Shown here in pieces: positions 2,544-6,924 of a DNA stretch of 64,000 nucleotides (within the stretch, counting starts at the first letter, position 1; the number at the start of each line of letters is the position of its first letter). Below the pieces are notes generated by a model. It saw only the letters and a list, made by a program, of their open reading frames with translations. It did not search any database and had not been told where the DNA came from. The translations under genes and the position numbers were made by a program. Origin of the DNA: Candidatus Altiarchaeota archaeon (GTDB taxonomy: Archaea > Altiarchaeota > Altiarchaeia > IMC4 > SCGC-AAA252-I15); NCBI GenBank assembly GCA_043804895.1, contig JAZDIN010000025.1, forward strand, positions 32,001-96,000, read 5' to 3'.

Positions 2544-3646
2544 ATGCGCTCGACCCATGGACTGTGCGGGAGGTAGGTGACTACGATAAGCTGATGAAGG
2601 ATTTCGGCATAGAGTCGTTCGAAAAATACGGGACAAAGTTTGACACATTCAGGTACGTCCGCCGTGGCATAATATTCGGACACCGCGACTTCCAGCGTAT
2701 TGTCAGCGCAATCGATGCGAAGAAACCATTCGCGATGATGACCGGACTCATGCCCTCAGGTCCACTTCACTTCGGCCATAAGATGGTGGCTGACGAGATG
2801 ATATGGTTCCAGAAGCAGGGGGCAGATACTTTCATCTGCGCTGCAGACACTGAAAGCTACCTGATGAGGGACATAGGATTCAACGAGGCAAGGCGCATAG
2901 CAACCGAGGAATACCTGACCAACTACCTGGCACTCGGCCTGAAGGTGCGGAAGCTGCACTTCTGGTTCCAGAGCGACTACATCAGCGAATACTACCGTCT
3001 CAGGGACATGGCATCCAAGAGGGTCACTTTCAACGAACTACAGGCCATATACGGGGAGCTATCCCCTGGGAAGATAATATCGGTTCTCACCCAGGTTGCT
3101 GACATACTCCACCCGCAGCTTGAACAATTCGGAGGCCCGAAGCCAGTAGTGGTGCCCGTTGGCATTGACCAGGACCCTCACATACGGCTGACACGGGATA
3201 TAGCCTCAAGGCTTAACGCAACAAGAGAAGACGGCAAAGCCGACCTCACATGCATCCCCCCCTCATCCACATACCACAAGTTCATGGCGGGACTTCAGGG
3301 CGGCAAGATGAGCTCATCGGATCCGAAGAGCCACATAGCGTTGAACGAGAGCCCGGAGTCAGCGAAGAAGAAGATAATGTCAGCCAAGACTGGGGGGAGA
3401 GCAACAGTAGATGAGCAGAAGAGGCTCGGAGGCGAACCAGGAAACTGCATGATTTACGAGCTATACCTCTACCACCTAATAGAAGACGACCTAGAGCTCA
3501 GCAGGGTATACCACGAGTGCAAGGAGGGGAAACTCCTATGCGGCGAAGATAAAAGACGATGCGCTGAGCTCATGGAAAAATTCCTCACAAAACACCAGAA
3601 GAAGATTGCCTCAGCACGGAAAAAGGCAGAGAAGCTGATAAGATGA
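2540..3646 (+). CDS. trpS: Tryptophanyl-tRNA synthetase (archaeal type)
   Basis: PSGPLHFGH (HIGH-like), GIDQDPH and KMSSS motifs. Confidence 0.96.
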   Translation: MNALDPWTVREVGDYDKLMKDFGIESFEKYGTKFDTFRYVRRGIIFGHRDFQRIVSAIDAKKPFAMMTGLMPSGPLHFGHKMVADEMIWFQKQGADTFICAADTESYLMRDIGFNEARRIATEEYLTNYLALGLKVRKLHFWFQSDYISEYYRLRDMASKRVTFNELQAIYGELSPGKIISVLTQVADILHPQLEQFGGPKPVVVPVGIDQDPHIRLTRDIASRLNATREDGKADLTCIPPSSTYHKFMAGLQGGKMSSSDPKSHIALNESPESAKKKIMSAKTGGRATVDEQKRLGGEPGNCMIYELYLYHLIEDDLELSRVYHECKEGKLLCGEDKRRCAELMEKFLTKHQKKIASARKKAEKLIR

Positions 3647-4452
3647 AGTATTTCATAAGCCTGACCTTCCTGTCATCAACCTACCTCCTAACCCTAATAT
3701 TGGGACTCAACACCGCAGCATTCATACTACCCTTAATGTATCCGCCGGAGGGGCAGGAGCAGGTGATAGCGCCGGTAGTCTCAAACCCAGAGAGCATGGG
3801 GTCGTCGCTGCAACTATTCCTCTACATAATAATCGGGACAGCCGTGATGCTCATCCTCATAAAGAAGAAACTCAACATAATCATACAGGCTGCAGTAGGC
3901 TTCTCCCTTCTGATCGGCACGCTCTTCACATACTCAGCAATCTTCGGCGACCTAGCGCTGCTGCTCACACCCCTAAGCCTGATACTCGCCTACCTGAAAC
4001 GCGACACAATAGTGGCCAACAACATGCTCCTCACATTCGGAATAGCGGGCATAGGCTCGCTCCTTGGCGCATCCCTCGGGATACTCCCAGCCCTCGCGCT
4101 CATACTGATAATGTCAGCATACGACCTAATCGCAGTATTCGTCACAAAACACATGGTAACCCTCGCAAAGGAAAGCCAAGGGAAATTCACCCTCATGTTC
4201 ACCATACCCGTCGGAGACAGGGCCATACACCTCGGCGCAGGCGACATAGCAATACCCCTCACATTCTCAGCCTCAGTACTGGCCGCCAAAGGCGCAGGCT
4301 ACGCAATACCAACCGCACTCGGCGGCCTACTCGGCCTCATAGCCCTCTTCTACTACATACTCGGAAGAGAGAAGGTAACACTCCCAGCACTACCACCGAT
4401 AACGGCAGGACTAATATTCGGCTACGCATTATGCCTCCTGACACTCGGATGA
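3643..4452 (+). CDS. Presenilin/SPP-family intramembrane aspartyl protease
   Basis: Polytopic membrane protein with YD (SAYDL), GxGD (LGAGD) and PAL (LPALP) motifs. Confidence 0.9.
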   Translation: MKYFISLTFLSSTYLLTLILGLNTAAFILPLMYPPEGQEQVIAPVVSNPESMGSSLQLFLYIIIGTAVMLILIKKKLNIIIQAAVGFSLLIGTLFTYSAIFGDLALLLTPLSLILAYLKRDTIVANNMLLTFGIAGIGSLLGASLGILPALALILIMSAYDLIAVFVTKHMVTLAKESQGKFTLMFTIPVGDRAIHLGAGDIAIPLTFSASVLAAKGAGYAIPTALGGLLGLIALFYYILGREKVTLPALPPITAGLIFGYALCLLTLG

Positions 4453-4559
4453 ACTGAAATGTTGCCTTAAAATGCCCGTCTATCACACTCATATCAAATC
4501 TACACTAAAAAAAATTAGCCTCTTTTATACAAAGACAACGTATAAACTACCCGTTATAA

Positions 4560-4704
4560 AGCGGGGTTGAGCAGTCAGGAGTGCTCGTCGGACGCGCAAG
4601 AGGAACATTTGCTCGGTGCGGGCGAAGCTCATAAGAGGTACGTCCTCATGAGGAACGCACTCTAAGACACCCGAAGGTCGGTAGTTCAAATCTACCCCCC
4701 GCTA
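4560..4704 (+). tRNA. Initiator tRNA-Met(CAT) with two introns (4592-4626 at position 30/31; 4634-4668 at 37/38)
   Basis: Removing both 35-nt segments gives a 75-nt cloverleaf AGCGGGGTTGAGCAGTCAGGAGTGCTCGTCGG/GCTCATA/ACCCGAAGGTCGGTAGTTCAAATCTACCCCCCGCTA with A1-U72 and three G-C pairs in the anticodon stem. Both introns show BHB-like geometry. Confidence 0.92.
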
Positions 4705-5423
4705 TTTCTTATCTCTAGTTTGGACAGCATATCTACCCTCTCTCTAAGTGACATACGTTTCGGACAGTAACCGAGTCTTTTCCATAATAAATATTTTGTT
4801 TTGTGTTTCGGATTATTAAAGCCAATCATACTGGCCCACTCTTCTAGTTGCTCTTTACCATTAATCTGAATTCTAACAACTTTATCTGAATAAATTCGTG
4901 GGGCTAACATGATATCAAACCCAGATTGTACTAGCATATTGATAAATTGATTACGCATAGGAGACGGTAGCATCTTGATTTCAAGCCTTGGGTAATAATG
5001 TCTATCCGTATGTTGCTTATCAAACACTAAACAGCCATCAGTGTCAAAAAGACCACGCATAAAATCTCGTTCAAGATTTTCAGTCGTTATAAACTCAGGA
5101 ATACTTGCATTATCCCTTTTTGGGGCAGGTTTTAACCCTAAACTAATCAGCGAATAGTAATATTCTCTACCAAATAGTAGCAACTCCACTACTCTCTCGG
5201 TGGTTTTAAACCTAAGTAGTGGCTCTTTTTTGAATACTCGCTCCATCAAAGGAGAAACAAAGTTCATAATATACGGTAAATCTTCATCCGAGTCACATGT
5301 TATCTTAACTCTATACTGGGTTTTTATCCCCTTTTCAGAATGACATTTGTACTTACCAAGTGATCCATCCCCCAACAGTATCCCAATAAACTCTGCTATT
5401 TCCTCAGTCCACTCAAAGATCAT
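4692..5423 (-). CDS. Free-standing two-motif LAGLIDADG endonuclease-like protein
   Basis: IAEFIGILLGDGS and FMRGLFDTDGC motifs. Visibly AT-richer than neighbours. Stop codon lies inside the tRNA-iMet gene. Confidence 0.88.
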   Translation of the reverse strand: MIFEWTEEIAEFIGILLGDGSLGKYKCHSEKGIKTQYRVKITCDSDEDLPYIMNFVSPLMERVFKKEPLLRFKTTERVVELLLFGREYYYSLISLGLKPAPKRDNASIPEFITTENLERDFMRGLFDTDGCLVFDKQHTDRHYYPRLEIKMLPSPMRNQFINMLVQSGFDIMLAPRIYSDKVVRIQINGKEQLEEWASMIGFNNPKHKTKYLLWKRLGYCPKRMSLRERVDMLSKLEIRNSGG

Positions 5424-5550
5424 ATAACCTAACCTTGGTGGCTGGTCTAAAACAATTCACCCCTGAGTAAAGGAAAAGTAATCCCTCATCCTGCTGTAGT
5501 TAAAACTCTTCTGATTTTTATATCTCACTACCCTATATATTGGCTGCATT

Positions 5551-5706
5551 ATGGCTAAGTTTAAGGAGGCTGAGGTCAGGTTTTTTAAGGGCGTTTGCAT
5601 GAGTTGCAACGCTAAGAATCCTGTTGATGCCACCAAGTGCCGCAAGTGCGGGAAGGTTAACAGGATTAGGCGCAAGCGTAGGAAGAAGGCTGTCAGCGCA
5701 GCTTAA
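5551..5706 (+). CDS. rpl40e: 50S ribosomal protein L40e
   Basis: Below ORF-track cutoff. Manual translation: [51 protein letters not shown]. Confidence 0.92.
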
Positions 5707-5782
5707 GGTATGTCCTGTACTACTCCTGTTTAATGTACTCTTTTTTAAGGCTCTACTGTCAGGTCAGATTAGGGTGGTCTAA

Positions 5783-6148
5783 TTGGCTGACAGGATGCTT
5801 TACGCGGCCTTGTTCGTCTCAGTATTGGGTTTGTTTTTGATTTCATTCATCTCTCCGTCGATTAAGCCTCCGCGTTCCAGCGTCTGTGATGTAACATCAT
5901 CCTCGCTTGAGAAGGTTGTCGTGGTAGGAGGCAACATCACAAGGGTTCATGAGTTCAAGGGCGGGAGTATGGCCTTGACTTTGTCTGACAGTGGTTGCGA
6001 CATTGAAGTCTACCTGTCATATGACGTTGCAGCATCACTCAACAGCACCACCCTACTTGGTAGGCGTGTGGAGTTGTCGGGGGTTGTGCAGATTTATCGG
6101 GGTAGGGTGGAGGTTGTGGTTGAGAAGCCTACTTTGGTGTTGAGATGA
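5783..6148 (+). CDS. Membrane-anchored OB-fold nucleic-acid-binding-like protein
   Basis: N-terminal hydrophobic helix followed by an OB-fold pattern (VVVGGNIT...LTLSDSGCDIEV...VELSGVVQIYRGRVEV). Confidence 0.7.
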   Translation: MADRMLYAALFVSVLGLFLISFISPSIKPPRSSVCDVTSSSLEKVVVVGGNITRVHEFKGGSMALTLSDSGCDIEVYLSYDVAASLNSTTLLGRRVELSGVVQIYRGRVEVVVEKPTLVLR

Positions 6149-6924
6149 TACGCGCGTCTGACCTTAGCAGGTTCACGTACTGTGCTCGCCTCATCTACCT
6201 ATACTCAGTGCTTGGCTTGGAAGAAGAAAAAACTCCAGAGCGGATTAGGGGCGTCGTAGGCCATGCAGTGAGGCGTGAATTGTCTATGAGGCAGGCTCGC
6301 CTATTGGGGGGTATTCGCTCAGAGGAGGATGTGTATCATATCCTGTGTATGGAGCTTGATTCAGCTTTCTCTGACCTGCCGTGCATATTTGCGCAGGAGT
6401 GGTCAGCACTGCATTCTATCTTAATACCTGAAGTCAAGGCTGAAGTGCTAGCTGAATTGGATACACTCCAGAAGGATTTGGAGGCTATGGTCGAGGACGT
6501 CGGCTTCGAGAGGGCATTGAAGATAGTCACCCCCTGGAGGATAGAATACAACCTGAAGTCCGACTCTCTGGGCCTTTCAGGCCGCGTTGACAAGATAATG
6601 TATAACAGTGGTCTGGTCCCAGTTGACATAAAGACCGGTGTTGCCTCTGAGTTGGGGTGGGAAAGCGACAGGATACAGTTGTGCGCCTACGGTATGCTCA
6701 TGGAAGACAAATTCAGCGGAAACATACCCTACGGTCTTTTAGAGTACACGAGAATTGCGAAGAGGAGGCCGGTCTTGTTCACAGAGGAACTGAGGCGACA
6801 GGTGTTTGACGCCCGTGACGGCGTTCAAGAAATCCTGGAGGGGGCGGCCCCAGACGTGTGCCCGCATGGTCAGCCGAGAAAATGTGAGTCATGCAATCTA
6901 AGGGATGAATGCTACAGGAATTAG
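6145..6924 (+). CDS. cas4: Solo Cas4-like PD-(D/E)XK nuclease with Fe-S cysteines
   Basis: N-terminal YC, GLSGRVD, PVDIKTG, QLCAY and C-terminal [11 protein letters not shown]. No other cas gene or array in the window. Confidence 0.82.

Follow-up and report, generated by a model that had tools for sequence, protein, structure and literature searches.

We analyzed a 64,000-nucleotide (nt) stretch of DNA from a Candidatus Altiarchaeota archaeon (GenBank assembly GCA_043804895.1, contig JAZDIN010000025.1, positions 32,001 to 96,000 of the forward strand), which we call the window and number from its first letter. The window lies on contig C25 of an assembly, here G000, of 1.58 Mb in 71 contigs that is 88.7% complete. 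Positions 4560 to 4704 of the window hold what is almost certainly the initiator tRNA-Met (iMet) gene of this organism, a functional gene interrupted by two real introns that leave an exon of only 7 nt between them. An earlier note, made from the sequence alone, had described this locus as an initiator tRNA-Met gene with introns at tRNA positions 30/31 and 37/38. The gene and its promoter region are laid out as follows.

4523-4529, plus strand: TATA-box-like TTTTATA, about 31 to 37 nt upstream of tRNA position 1, a candidate archaeal promoter read from the sequence
4560-4591, plus strand: exon 1, 32 nt, tRNA positions 1-30 (5' strand of the acceptor stem, D-arm and first four bases of the anticodon stem)
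4592-4626, plus strand: intron 1, 35 nt, at 30/31
4627-4633, plus strand: exon 2, the 7-nt micro-exon GCTCATA, positions 31-37, including the anticodon CAT
4634-4668, plus strand: intron 2, 35 nt, at 37/38 (alternatively 4635-4669, at 38/39)
4669-4704, plus strand: exon 3, 36 nt, positions 38-73 (3' strand of the anticodon stem, variable loop, T-arm, 3' strand of the acceptor stem and discriminator A)

Left unspliced, the gene is called neither by ARAGORN at default settings nor by Rfam at its gathering score, both of which see only a tRNA-Gly elsewhere in the window, and Rfam gives no match over positions 4300 to 6200 at E values up to 1. Once the three exons are joined in silico, ARAGORN reports a 75-nt tRNA-Met(CAT) with all four stems paired and an A1:U72 pair; when either intron is deleted alone, it reads a tRNA-Met with one 35-nt intron. 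Two features mark archaeal initiator tRNA-Met: the A1:U72 pair and, in the anticodon stem, a run of three G:C pairs (29-31:39-41). The spliced product is a CAU cloverleaf that has both features, its anticodon stem being UCGGG/CCCGA with G29-G31 paired to C39-C41, and it is orthologous to the intact genes of relatives. Exon 1 is identical in four genomes of the same genus (G001 to G004), and the entire product matches the intronless iMet gene of one of them (G001, locus L034) at 75 of 75 nt, an identity that argues against a chance match.

We searched exhaustively through alternative two-intron placements that yield this same product. Intron 1 can be placed in a single way (4592-4626), while intron 2 can be placed in two ways that differ by a one-base slide (4634-4668 or 4635-4669) and are 35 nt long in both cases. 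At the level of sequence, identity of the spliced product to the intronless orthologue is thus shown to fix the exon boundaries, and the intron positions given by the earlier note are borne out.

The promoter-like box upstream of the gene has a similar counterpart, a TTTTATAC...ACAAC stretch, upstream of the iMet gene of one same-genus genome (G004, locus L038). The discriminator is followed by the T-rich sequence TTTCTT, and CCA is not encoded. A search for a second, intact iMet gene, the presence of which, together with the lack of a spliced product, the earlier note had held would point to a pseudogene, found none in this 88.7%-complete assembly: the 145-nt query matches once, and exons plus introns match only contig C25. 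Neither of the other two CAT tRNAs of G000 has the GGG/CCC stem, and the terminal pair of both is G1:C72; a pattern on contig C35 that resembles the 5' end of the gene proved not to be a tRNA. Neither intron has a copy elsewhere in the genome that would suggest transposition, as only chance matches of 11 to 16 nt were found.

To place this architecture among relatives, we surveyed 61 Altiarchaeota genomes including G000, the kind of survey that the earlier note had proposed. Fifty-two genomes gave a match; two partial matches (G027 and G054) were left out, and the architectures of 50 iMet genes from 50 genomes were parsed, one of them (L028) cut by a contig end.

No intron: 18 of 50 genes
Insert at 4/5 only (L048): 1 of 50 genes
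One intron near 37/38: 16 of 50 genes
T-loop intron only: 1 of 50 genes
Introns at 37/38 and in the T-loop: 1 of 50 genes
Introns at 30/31 and 37/38: 8 of 50 genes
Introns at 30/31, at 37/38 and in the T-loop: 5 of 50 genes, one of which (L037) has an additional insert at 4/5

The 30/31 intron is therefore present in 13 of the 50 parsed genes, and it is accompanied by a 37/38 intron in all 13. A separate pattern scan, which covered the same 61 genomes, likewise located the 30/31 intron in 13 of them. These comprise 10 genomes of family f5, 2 of family f9 and only 1 of the 21 genomes of family f1, namely G000 itself. Three of the four same-genus genomes have an intronless gene, and the fourth has a single, unrelated 47-nt intron. 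Each of the 12 other genomes with the 30/31 intron yielded a single iMet copy, and it has this architecture. In a metagenome scan, the 30/31 plus 37/38 architecture turned up on 10 more contigs, one of which (L085) has exons of the type of the G000 genus. The earlier note had drawn attention to the equal length of the two introns; both are indeed 35 nt long in G000, but in the 12 relatives with both introns the first ranges from 32 to 38 nt and the second from 35 to 52 nt, and on this comparison the equality is a coincidence without meaning.

Intron 1 folds around a central helix between CGTC (4586-4589) and GGCG (4621-4624), with three Watson-Crick pairs and one G-U pair. Here GGCG pairs with exon bases C25-C28, which places the 5' splice site in the bulge GG|A; the second bulge is AA|G. 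Within the intron there follow an inner helix, CGCGC/GTGCG (4593-4597 with 4616-4620), and a second helix of GAG (4600-4602) with CTC (4612-4614). In all 13 genome copies and all 10 metagenome copies, the intron ends in GGCG followed by AA, or by UA in family f9. The inner helix, of 5 base pairs (bp) in G000 and 5 to 7 bp in all 13 genome copies, occurs in the variants CGCGC/GUGCG, CGCGC/GCGCG, CGCAU/GUGCG, CGUAU/GUACG and UGCGCG/UGCGCA, and RNAalifold identifies three of its pairs as changed on both sides. For the stem-loop as a whole, with both helices (P1 and P2) included, four pairs are changed on both sides, and the covariation score was reached by none of 500 shuffles. We take this as good evidence, from sequence comparison, that intron 1 is a covarying two-helix hairpin and a selected RNA structure.

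The central helix, bulges and inner stem of intron 1 are thus present as first described. No outer helix can be formed by the strands that directly flank the intron, as U24 and C23 are unable to pair with C32 and U33, and the motif is consequently a relaxed one (HBh'-like in the Marck-Grosjean scheme, as quoted in the sections of PMC4090602 used here). The statement that intron 1 has no proper outer helix holds for the ordinary outer helix. It does not convey that intron 2 contains a conserved partner for each flank, one for exon 2 and one for the D-arm strand.

The sequence of intron 2 permits a canonical 37/38 motif to be drawn, with GAGG (4635-4638) near the 5' end and the canonical 3' strand of the central helix, TAAG (4663-4666), just ahead of the last two bases. 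The palindrome TCCTCATGAGGA at 4643-4654 and the central helix CTCA/TAAG with its one C-A mismatch are as the earlier note had them. Of the 13 genome copies, 8 have a canonical central helix of 4 bp; in the other 5, including G000, it consists of 3 bp and a mismatch. The canonical inner helix GAG(G)/(C)UUC has 3 to 5 bp in 11 of 13, and GAG/CUC is present in G000. Beyond these parts, intron 2 contains two segments complementary to exons, which we call the box and the tail, and neither of them is required for the canonical 37/38 motif.

4644-4652, plus strand: box CCTCATGAG, of which AUGAG is complementary to CUCAU of exon 2 (positions 32-36) and CCUC to the 5' GAGG of the intron itself
4657-4663, plus strand: tail GCACTCT, complementary to GGAGTGC (4578-4584), the 3' strand of the D-arm, and overlapping the 3' strand of the canonical inner helix (CTC)

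Both segments are conserved elements of the one class of 37/38 intron that accompanies the 30/31 intron. The full box CTCATGAG (in RNA, CUCAUGAG) occurs in 11 of the 13 genome copies, the other two having UCGUGAG, and an [A/G]TGAG core that pairs with CUCAU perfectly or through G-U is present in all 13; all 10 metagenome copies have a less strictly defined core, [A/G]UG[A/G]G, that pairs with CUCAU. The box helix (helix 5) is paired in 98.1% of alignment cells. RNAalifold, run on the first alignment, predicts the box hairpin, including the pairing of the box CUC with the GAG at the 5' end of intron 2.

The duplex of the D-arm with the tail has a computed energy of -12.1 kcal/mol in G000, as good as which none of 200 shuffles was. 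All 11 family f1 and f5 genes have energies between -8.5 and -14.7 kcal/mol, which no more than 5 of 200 shuffled tails equalled or surpassed, and all 10 metagenome copies fall in this range too. The mean is -10.9 kcal/mol in the 13 genes with the 30/31 intron versus -3.5 in 17 genes without it, among which L036 alone reaches -8.8. Where the tail has changed (C to U opposite G, or A to G opposite U), pairing is kept as G-U in 5 of 5 changed cells, at four positions. When all these helices are combined in a composite structure, 92.9% of its cells are paired, compared to 30 to 50% when the partners are slid by 1 to 3 columns.

We then considered how these segments could act during splicing, using in silico folds of 11 two-intron primary transcripts, for each of which we recorded the minimum-energy structure and ensemble probabilities (P). 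In all 11 transcripts, which still contain intron 1, both the anticodon stem and the canonical helix of intron 2 are modelled at P of about 0. In the minimum-energy fold of the G000 primary transcript, the D-arm strand pairs with the tail of intron 2 in a helix that continues directly into the intron-1 central helix. A clean bulge of 3 nt holds the 5' site of intron 1 in this fold, the AA|G site is at a junction, and exon 2 lies within the box hairpin, with the 5' site of intron 2 in a 2-nt bulge. Both bulges of intron 1 are then flanked by helices on either side along their own strands. The box hairpin reaches a P of at least 0.53 in 10 of the 11 transcripts.

When intron 1 is removed in silico, the G000 RNA becomes a cloverleaf, with the anticodon stem at a P of 0.91 and the canonical inner helix of intron 2 at 0.90. 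If intron 2 is instead removed first, intron 1 is predicted to refold in a register without the bulge. The earlier note had proposed that splicing is ordered, because the outer helix of intron 2 is the anticodon stem, and in the models this helix does form only once intron 1 is gone. Removal of intron 1 first is therefore supported by folding models for the G000 gene, and for a fuller reason than the one originally given.

With moderate confidence, we hold that this is a functional gene in which the two introns fold together, that intron 1 is cut first, and that intron 2 is then cut as an ordinary 37/38 intron. The transcript would start from the upstream TATA-like box, EndA would cut out both archaeal-type introns, and RtcB would join the three exons. 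The two introns would form one folding unit: the box (AUGAG) would pair with CUCAU of the anticodon loop just after the AA|G bulge, and the tail (GCACUC) would pair with the D-arm strand GAGUGC just before the intron-1 central helix. Together these pairings would give each intron-1 bulge two flanking helices despite the absent ordinary outer helix, and they would hold the 7-nt micro-exon in place. We propose that intron 1, its core flanked in this way by box and tail, would for that reason be removed first. Its loss would let the anticodon stem and D-stem of the G000 gene form and the tail switch to the 5' end of intron 2 (GAG/CUC), after which intron 2 would finally be cut as an ordinary 37/38 intron.

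A number of results weigh against this interpretation. Only 6 of the 11 sequences (G000, L018, L019, L026, L085 and L088) are predicted to switch to a cloverleaf once intron 1 has been removed; in the other 5 (L020 to L023 and L089) the fold of box and tail persists, at P of 0.68 to 0.99. The D-arm/tail helix ranges in P from 0.23 to 1.0 and is part of the minimum-energy fold in 7 of 11, and the bulge-forming register of the intron-1 central helix attains an ensemble P of only 0.07 to 0.49. On the 11 full-length two-intron genes, RNAalifold predicts neither the D-arm/tail helix nor the box hairpin; it keeps the D-stem and puts intron 1 in an alternative 3-bp register. The exon partners of box and tail are invariant, so that neither helix shows true covariation. 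The composite structure was derived from one of the tested sequences and was in that way favoured over the slid controls. The canonical central helix of intron 2 has, as noted above, only three pairs and a mismatch in G000. Finally, the two introns lie 7 nt apart, and their co-occurrence may reflect joint inheritance and joint loss only.

The splicing enzymes bear on how these introns could be recognized. EndA is encoded in G000 by one 183-amino-acid open reading frame (ORF; C1:19115-19663) that matches PF02778 and PF01974 and scores 133.8 bits against TIGR00324 (cut-off 59.6), the single match above cut-off in the genome. Throughout the phylum, 57 of 61 genomes have a match, each with one gene above the cut-off, in frames mostly of 170 to 220 amino acids. 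Searches for a beta subunit in G000 with NF007084, NF007085 and EndA itself match only the same ORF, in an assembly that is 88.7% complete and with the possibility that a beta subunit is very divergent. In an alignment of 163 residues with Methanocaldococcus jannaschii EndA (1a79), the protein shows a single gap, one residue long, and the catalytic domain (M. jannaschii residues 84-166) aligns gap-free; a Tyr, a His and a Lys, which we take to be the catalytic residues, are aligned and conserved. The ARMAN-2 enzyme (4fz2) carries a 5-residue insert before the His that is lacking in G000 EndA. RtcB is present as well.

Broad specificity of EndA has been tied to inserts termed L1 and L2, close to the catalytic His, and L3, in the C-terminal region, and alpha4 enzymes bearing L3 are found in DPANN archaea with many disrupted tRNAs, according to the main text of Kaneta et al. 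(2018; PMC5829648), in which the stem "altiarchae" does not occur. None of the broad-specificity inserts (L1/CSL, L2/ASL or L3) is seen in G000 EndA when it is aligned to the M. jannaschii enzyme, which on our understanding of the text of PMC5829648 itself has no L3 insert. By gene content and alignment, then, EndA is of the alpha4 type without known inserts, a single-gene enzyme collinear with that of M. jannaschii. The earlier note, which had suggested that the enzyme be classified, had taken multi-intron tRNAs and relaxed motifs to need an (alpha-beta)2 or epsilon2 endonuclease. This expectation is not supported by G000, with its single 183-amino-acid alpha4-type EndA and no beta subunit found, nor by the DPANN alpha4 enzymes that the main text of PMC5829648 reports.

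A possible, if improbable, alternative is that the gene is functional but its introns are independent: a broad-specificity endonuclease would remove them in any order, box and tail would serve the folding of intron 2 or simply be inherited, and the introns would be gained and lost jointly. The RNAalifold result on full-length genes, with no inter-intron helices, and the lack of covariation in the box and tail helices favor this account, and CUC/CUUC of the tail is already explained by the canonical inner helix of intron 2. In the literature, Kaneta et al. (2018; PMC5829648, main text) argue that specificity can hardly be read from the type of subunit, and the motifs described for Cyanidioschyzon merolae in PMC3728597 can, in the sections used here, each fold independently. 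Yet GCAC of the tail and the box, unneeded for the canonical motif, are kept across three families, and 17 introns of the 37/38 region that have no 30/31 partner lack D-arm complementarity, as the energies given above reflect. In addition, the anticodon stem that intron 2 needs is modelled as absent while intron 1 is present. As EndA is free of inserts relative to the M. jannaschii enzyme, broad specificity would also have no visible structural basis.

It is very unlikely that splicing is nested, with intron 2 an outer mini-intron around an inner intron and itself removed in two steps, which would make three splicing steps in all. In that scheme, the box helix CUCA/UGAG would be a first motif with its 3' cut about 2 nt past UGAG, and the roughly 14 nt left (ACGCACTCTAAGAC) would be cut by way of CUCA/UAAG. 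The box is indeed a perfect complement of CUCA, where the terminal strand of the central helix is mismatched in 5 of 13 copies, G000 among them; the box fold persists without intron 1 in 5 of 11 models, and f9 copies carry extra 3' sequence past the apparent intron end. Direct support is nil, however, and a 5' site in a 2-nt bulge or 3x1 loop, with an A-rich linker of 4 to 5 nt, is not the standard 3-nt bulge; the final product would be identical, so sequence cannot distinguish this scheme from the favored one. It is barely credible that this gene is decaying into a pseudogene while the real initiator tRNA is encoded in the 11% of the genome missing from the assembly. The incompleteness of that assembly, in 71 contigs, and the failure of standard finders would allow it, but the exons match the intact gene of a relative at 100% identity, compensatory changes preserve the pairing of the intron helices across 13 genomes, 12 other genomes have this architecture in the single iMet copy found in each, and the gene has a promoter-like box upstream and a T-rich sequence at its 3' end.

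Multi-intron tRNA genes and the 30/31 position are already known as a kind, and what is new here is the lineage, the plain single-gene EndA and the conserved pairing of one intron with the flanks of another. The tRNA-Pro(UGG) gene of Pyrobaculum islandicum has introns at 25/26, 37/38 and 56/57 (Sugahara et al. 2007, 2008, via Yoshihisa 2014, PMC4090602), and the sections of that review used here list 30/31 among non-canonical intron sites and describe three-intron tRNAs. As in the Thermoproteales genes treated there, canonical and non-canonical protein-spliced introns share one tRNA in G000, with relaxed HBh'/hBH motifs. The Thermoproteales, however, have an (alpha-beta)2 EndA with a Crenarchaea-specific loop, whereas G000 has one short, insert-free EndA gene, and the account in those sections of PMC4090602 does not describe intron segments that pair with the exon flanks of another intron. 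Our literature searches found no paper on tRNA introns of Altiarchaeota.

An order of removal has been established in another system. In Cyanidioschyzon merolae, reverse transcription PCR (RT-PCR) showed that two or three introns of the bulge-helix-bulge type are cut in a set sequence, the anticodon-arm motif always coming last (Soma et al. 2013, PMC3728597). The order that we propose for G000 similarly puts the anticodon-arm motif last. C. merolae is a eukaryote and its order comes from RT-PCR, while the order in G000 is modelled from mutually exclusive pairings; in the sections of PMC3728597 used here, the authors relate the order to the free energy or position of the motifs. Methanopyrus kandleri has a loop-less (alpha-beta)2 EndA and a tRNA-Glu with a D-loop intron and a canonical intron, with a tendency in order opposite to that of C. 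merolae, according to the part of Su et al. (2013; PMC3695527) drawn on here. G000 thus resembles DPANN archaea in having a single-subunit-type EndA in a lineage with non-canonical introns, and M. kandleri in having no specific loop. It differs from the DPANN alpha4 enzymes, at least as presented in the main text of PMC5829648, in that these carry the L3 insert, where the catalytic domain of G000 EndA can be aligned with the M. jannaschii enzyme without gaps.

The accepted rule is that non-canonical and multiple tRNA introns go together with endonucleases that have extra subunits or loops. Altiarchaeota stand in contrast to it, with one plain EndA in 57 of 61 genomes and yet a 30/31 intron in the sole initiator tRNA gene of 13 of the 61. 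If it is true that a partner intron supplies the missing helices, then the breadth of substrates can evolve in RNA rather than in the enzyme, and the persistence of a 7-nt exon through two rounds of splicing would be explained as well. For annotation, the consequence is that standard tRNA finders miss an essential gene, such that genomes look devoid of an initiator tRNA.

A further element of the locus is a neighboring gene that converges on the tRNA gene.

4692-5423, minus strand: putative free-standing LAGLIDADG-type endonuclease gene, 243 amino acids, convergent with the tRNA gene, its last codons overlapping tRNA bases 4692-4704

The translated protein contains two LAGLIDADG-like motifs (LLGDGSL-like and LFDTDGCL-like); its best match in PDB is I-DmoI, a weak one at an E value of 0.011, and no Pfam family matches at an E value of 0.01. 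Homologues of at least 50% identity occur in 6 of 60 relatives and always adjoin the iMet gene. Five of the six lie beside two-intron genes, one of these (in G035) with an in-frame TGA, and the sixth, in G030 (C26:55639-56309, L049), is a stop-broken copy beside an intronless iMet gene and is the only case of the nuclease without the introns. Two metagenome loci also have the LAGLIDADG gene. Among the 13 genomes with the 30/31 intron, however, 5 have no match to this LAGLIDADG query (G032, G033, G038, G043 and G059), G058 has a distant match inside a 1104-amino-acid frame, and G024 has a remnant only. As 6 of these 13 genomes have no close homologue, the gene is not needed for splicing, and we rejected a role as a required splicing helper (maturase).

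In T4-like phages, a free-standing homing endonuclease can act together with a neighboring intron that interrupts its target site, an arrangement known as collaborative homing. The G000 locus is similar in that a free-standing endonuclease gene lies directly beside an intron-bearing gene. It differs in that the phage introns are self-splicing group I introns in protein genes and those of G000 are tRNA introns, and in the absence of a close LAGLIDADG homologue from the genomes just counted. Going beyond the interpretation favored above, one may view the introns as a co-folding device with guide segments in intron 2 that would pair with the anticodon loop and the D-arm and so supply the helices missing from the 30/31 intron, through which an insert-free EndA would be enabled to cut at 30/31, a site that it should otherwise refuse, the order of removal would be forced and the micro-exon would be held; in addition, the pair would split the target of the LAGLIDADG endonuclease and spread with its gene. 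We advance this wider proposal tentatively and regard it as rather doubtful in its entirety.

The locus also differs in orientation from those of close relatives. In the window, between 4453 and 5530, the promoter and tRNA gene are inverted relative to all four same-genus genomes (L034, L038, L039 and L041). The inverted segment is flanked by the same genes, a signal-peptide-peptidase-like gene at 3643-4452 and a conserved stretch beginning at 5530, and the LAGLIDADG gene has been added. Comparison of these sequences points to a rearrangement at the iMet locus. Families f1 and f5 share the conserved stretch (5530-5747, about 200 bp, 74 to 81% identity) next to iMet; neither Rfam nor Pfam gives a match for it, and an ORF of 72 amino acids (5457-5675, minus strand) overlaps it.

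The survey of relatives revealed other insertions in iMet genes. A T-loop intron (about 56/57 to 58/59) of 32 to 38 nt is present in L024, L025 and L027 (family f5), in L028 and L037 (family f9) and in L040 and L057; it gives rise to three-intron initiator genes in relatives, and L040 has it alone. In L037 (G058) and L048 (G045), the first four bases of the tRNA, AGCG, stand 25 and 34 nt upstream of GGGTTGAG, a displacement from the tRNA body that points to an insert in the acceptor stem at about position 4/5. The total for L037 would accordingly be four inserts, and the L048 gene would be interrupted only here. The f9-like genes L028, L037, L057, L082, L084, L086 and L090 have 12 to 16 extra bases (for example UUAGGCCCUCGGUA) past the apparent 3' end of the 37/38 intron, which may represent a nested or adjacent mini-intron.

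Elsewhere in G000, a second RtcB match (C57:1385-2977) consists of two pieces within one open frame of 580 amino acids, and the split may be due to an insert such as an intein. A genome-wide search gave 17 Rfam matches at E values of at most 0.001, of which 16 were above the gathering score, and 26 tRNA predictions from ARAGORN; when E values up to 10 were admitted, Rfam tRNA gave 21 matches. In a census of disrupted tRNAs, a scan for T-arms and acceptor stems returned 22 candidates under strict and 25 under relaxed settings, compared to none in shuffled genomes. Sixteen of the 25 candidates, which have an intact T-arm and acceptor stem, are at least 90 nt long, one of which (C25:114097-114219) is probably a spurious extension of a 79-nt tRNA-Leu, and the G000 tRNA scan contained no T-loop introns. 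As a census method, removal of one segment followed by ARAGORN was uninformative, as 23 to 697 solutions were accepted per gene. Several isoacceptors are missing from G000 or are too disrupted for detection, and ARAGORN makes odd calls, for example 'tRNA-Stop(tta)' at C56:7621-7786.

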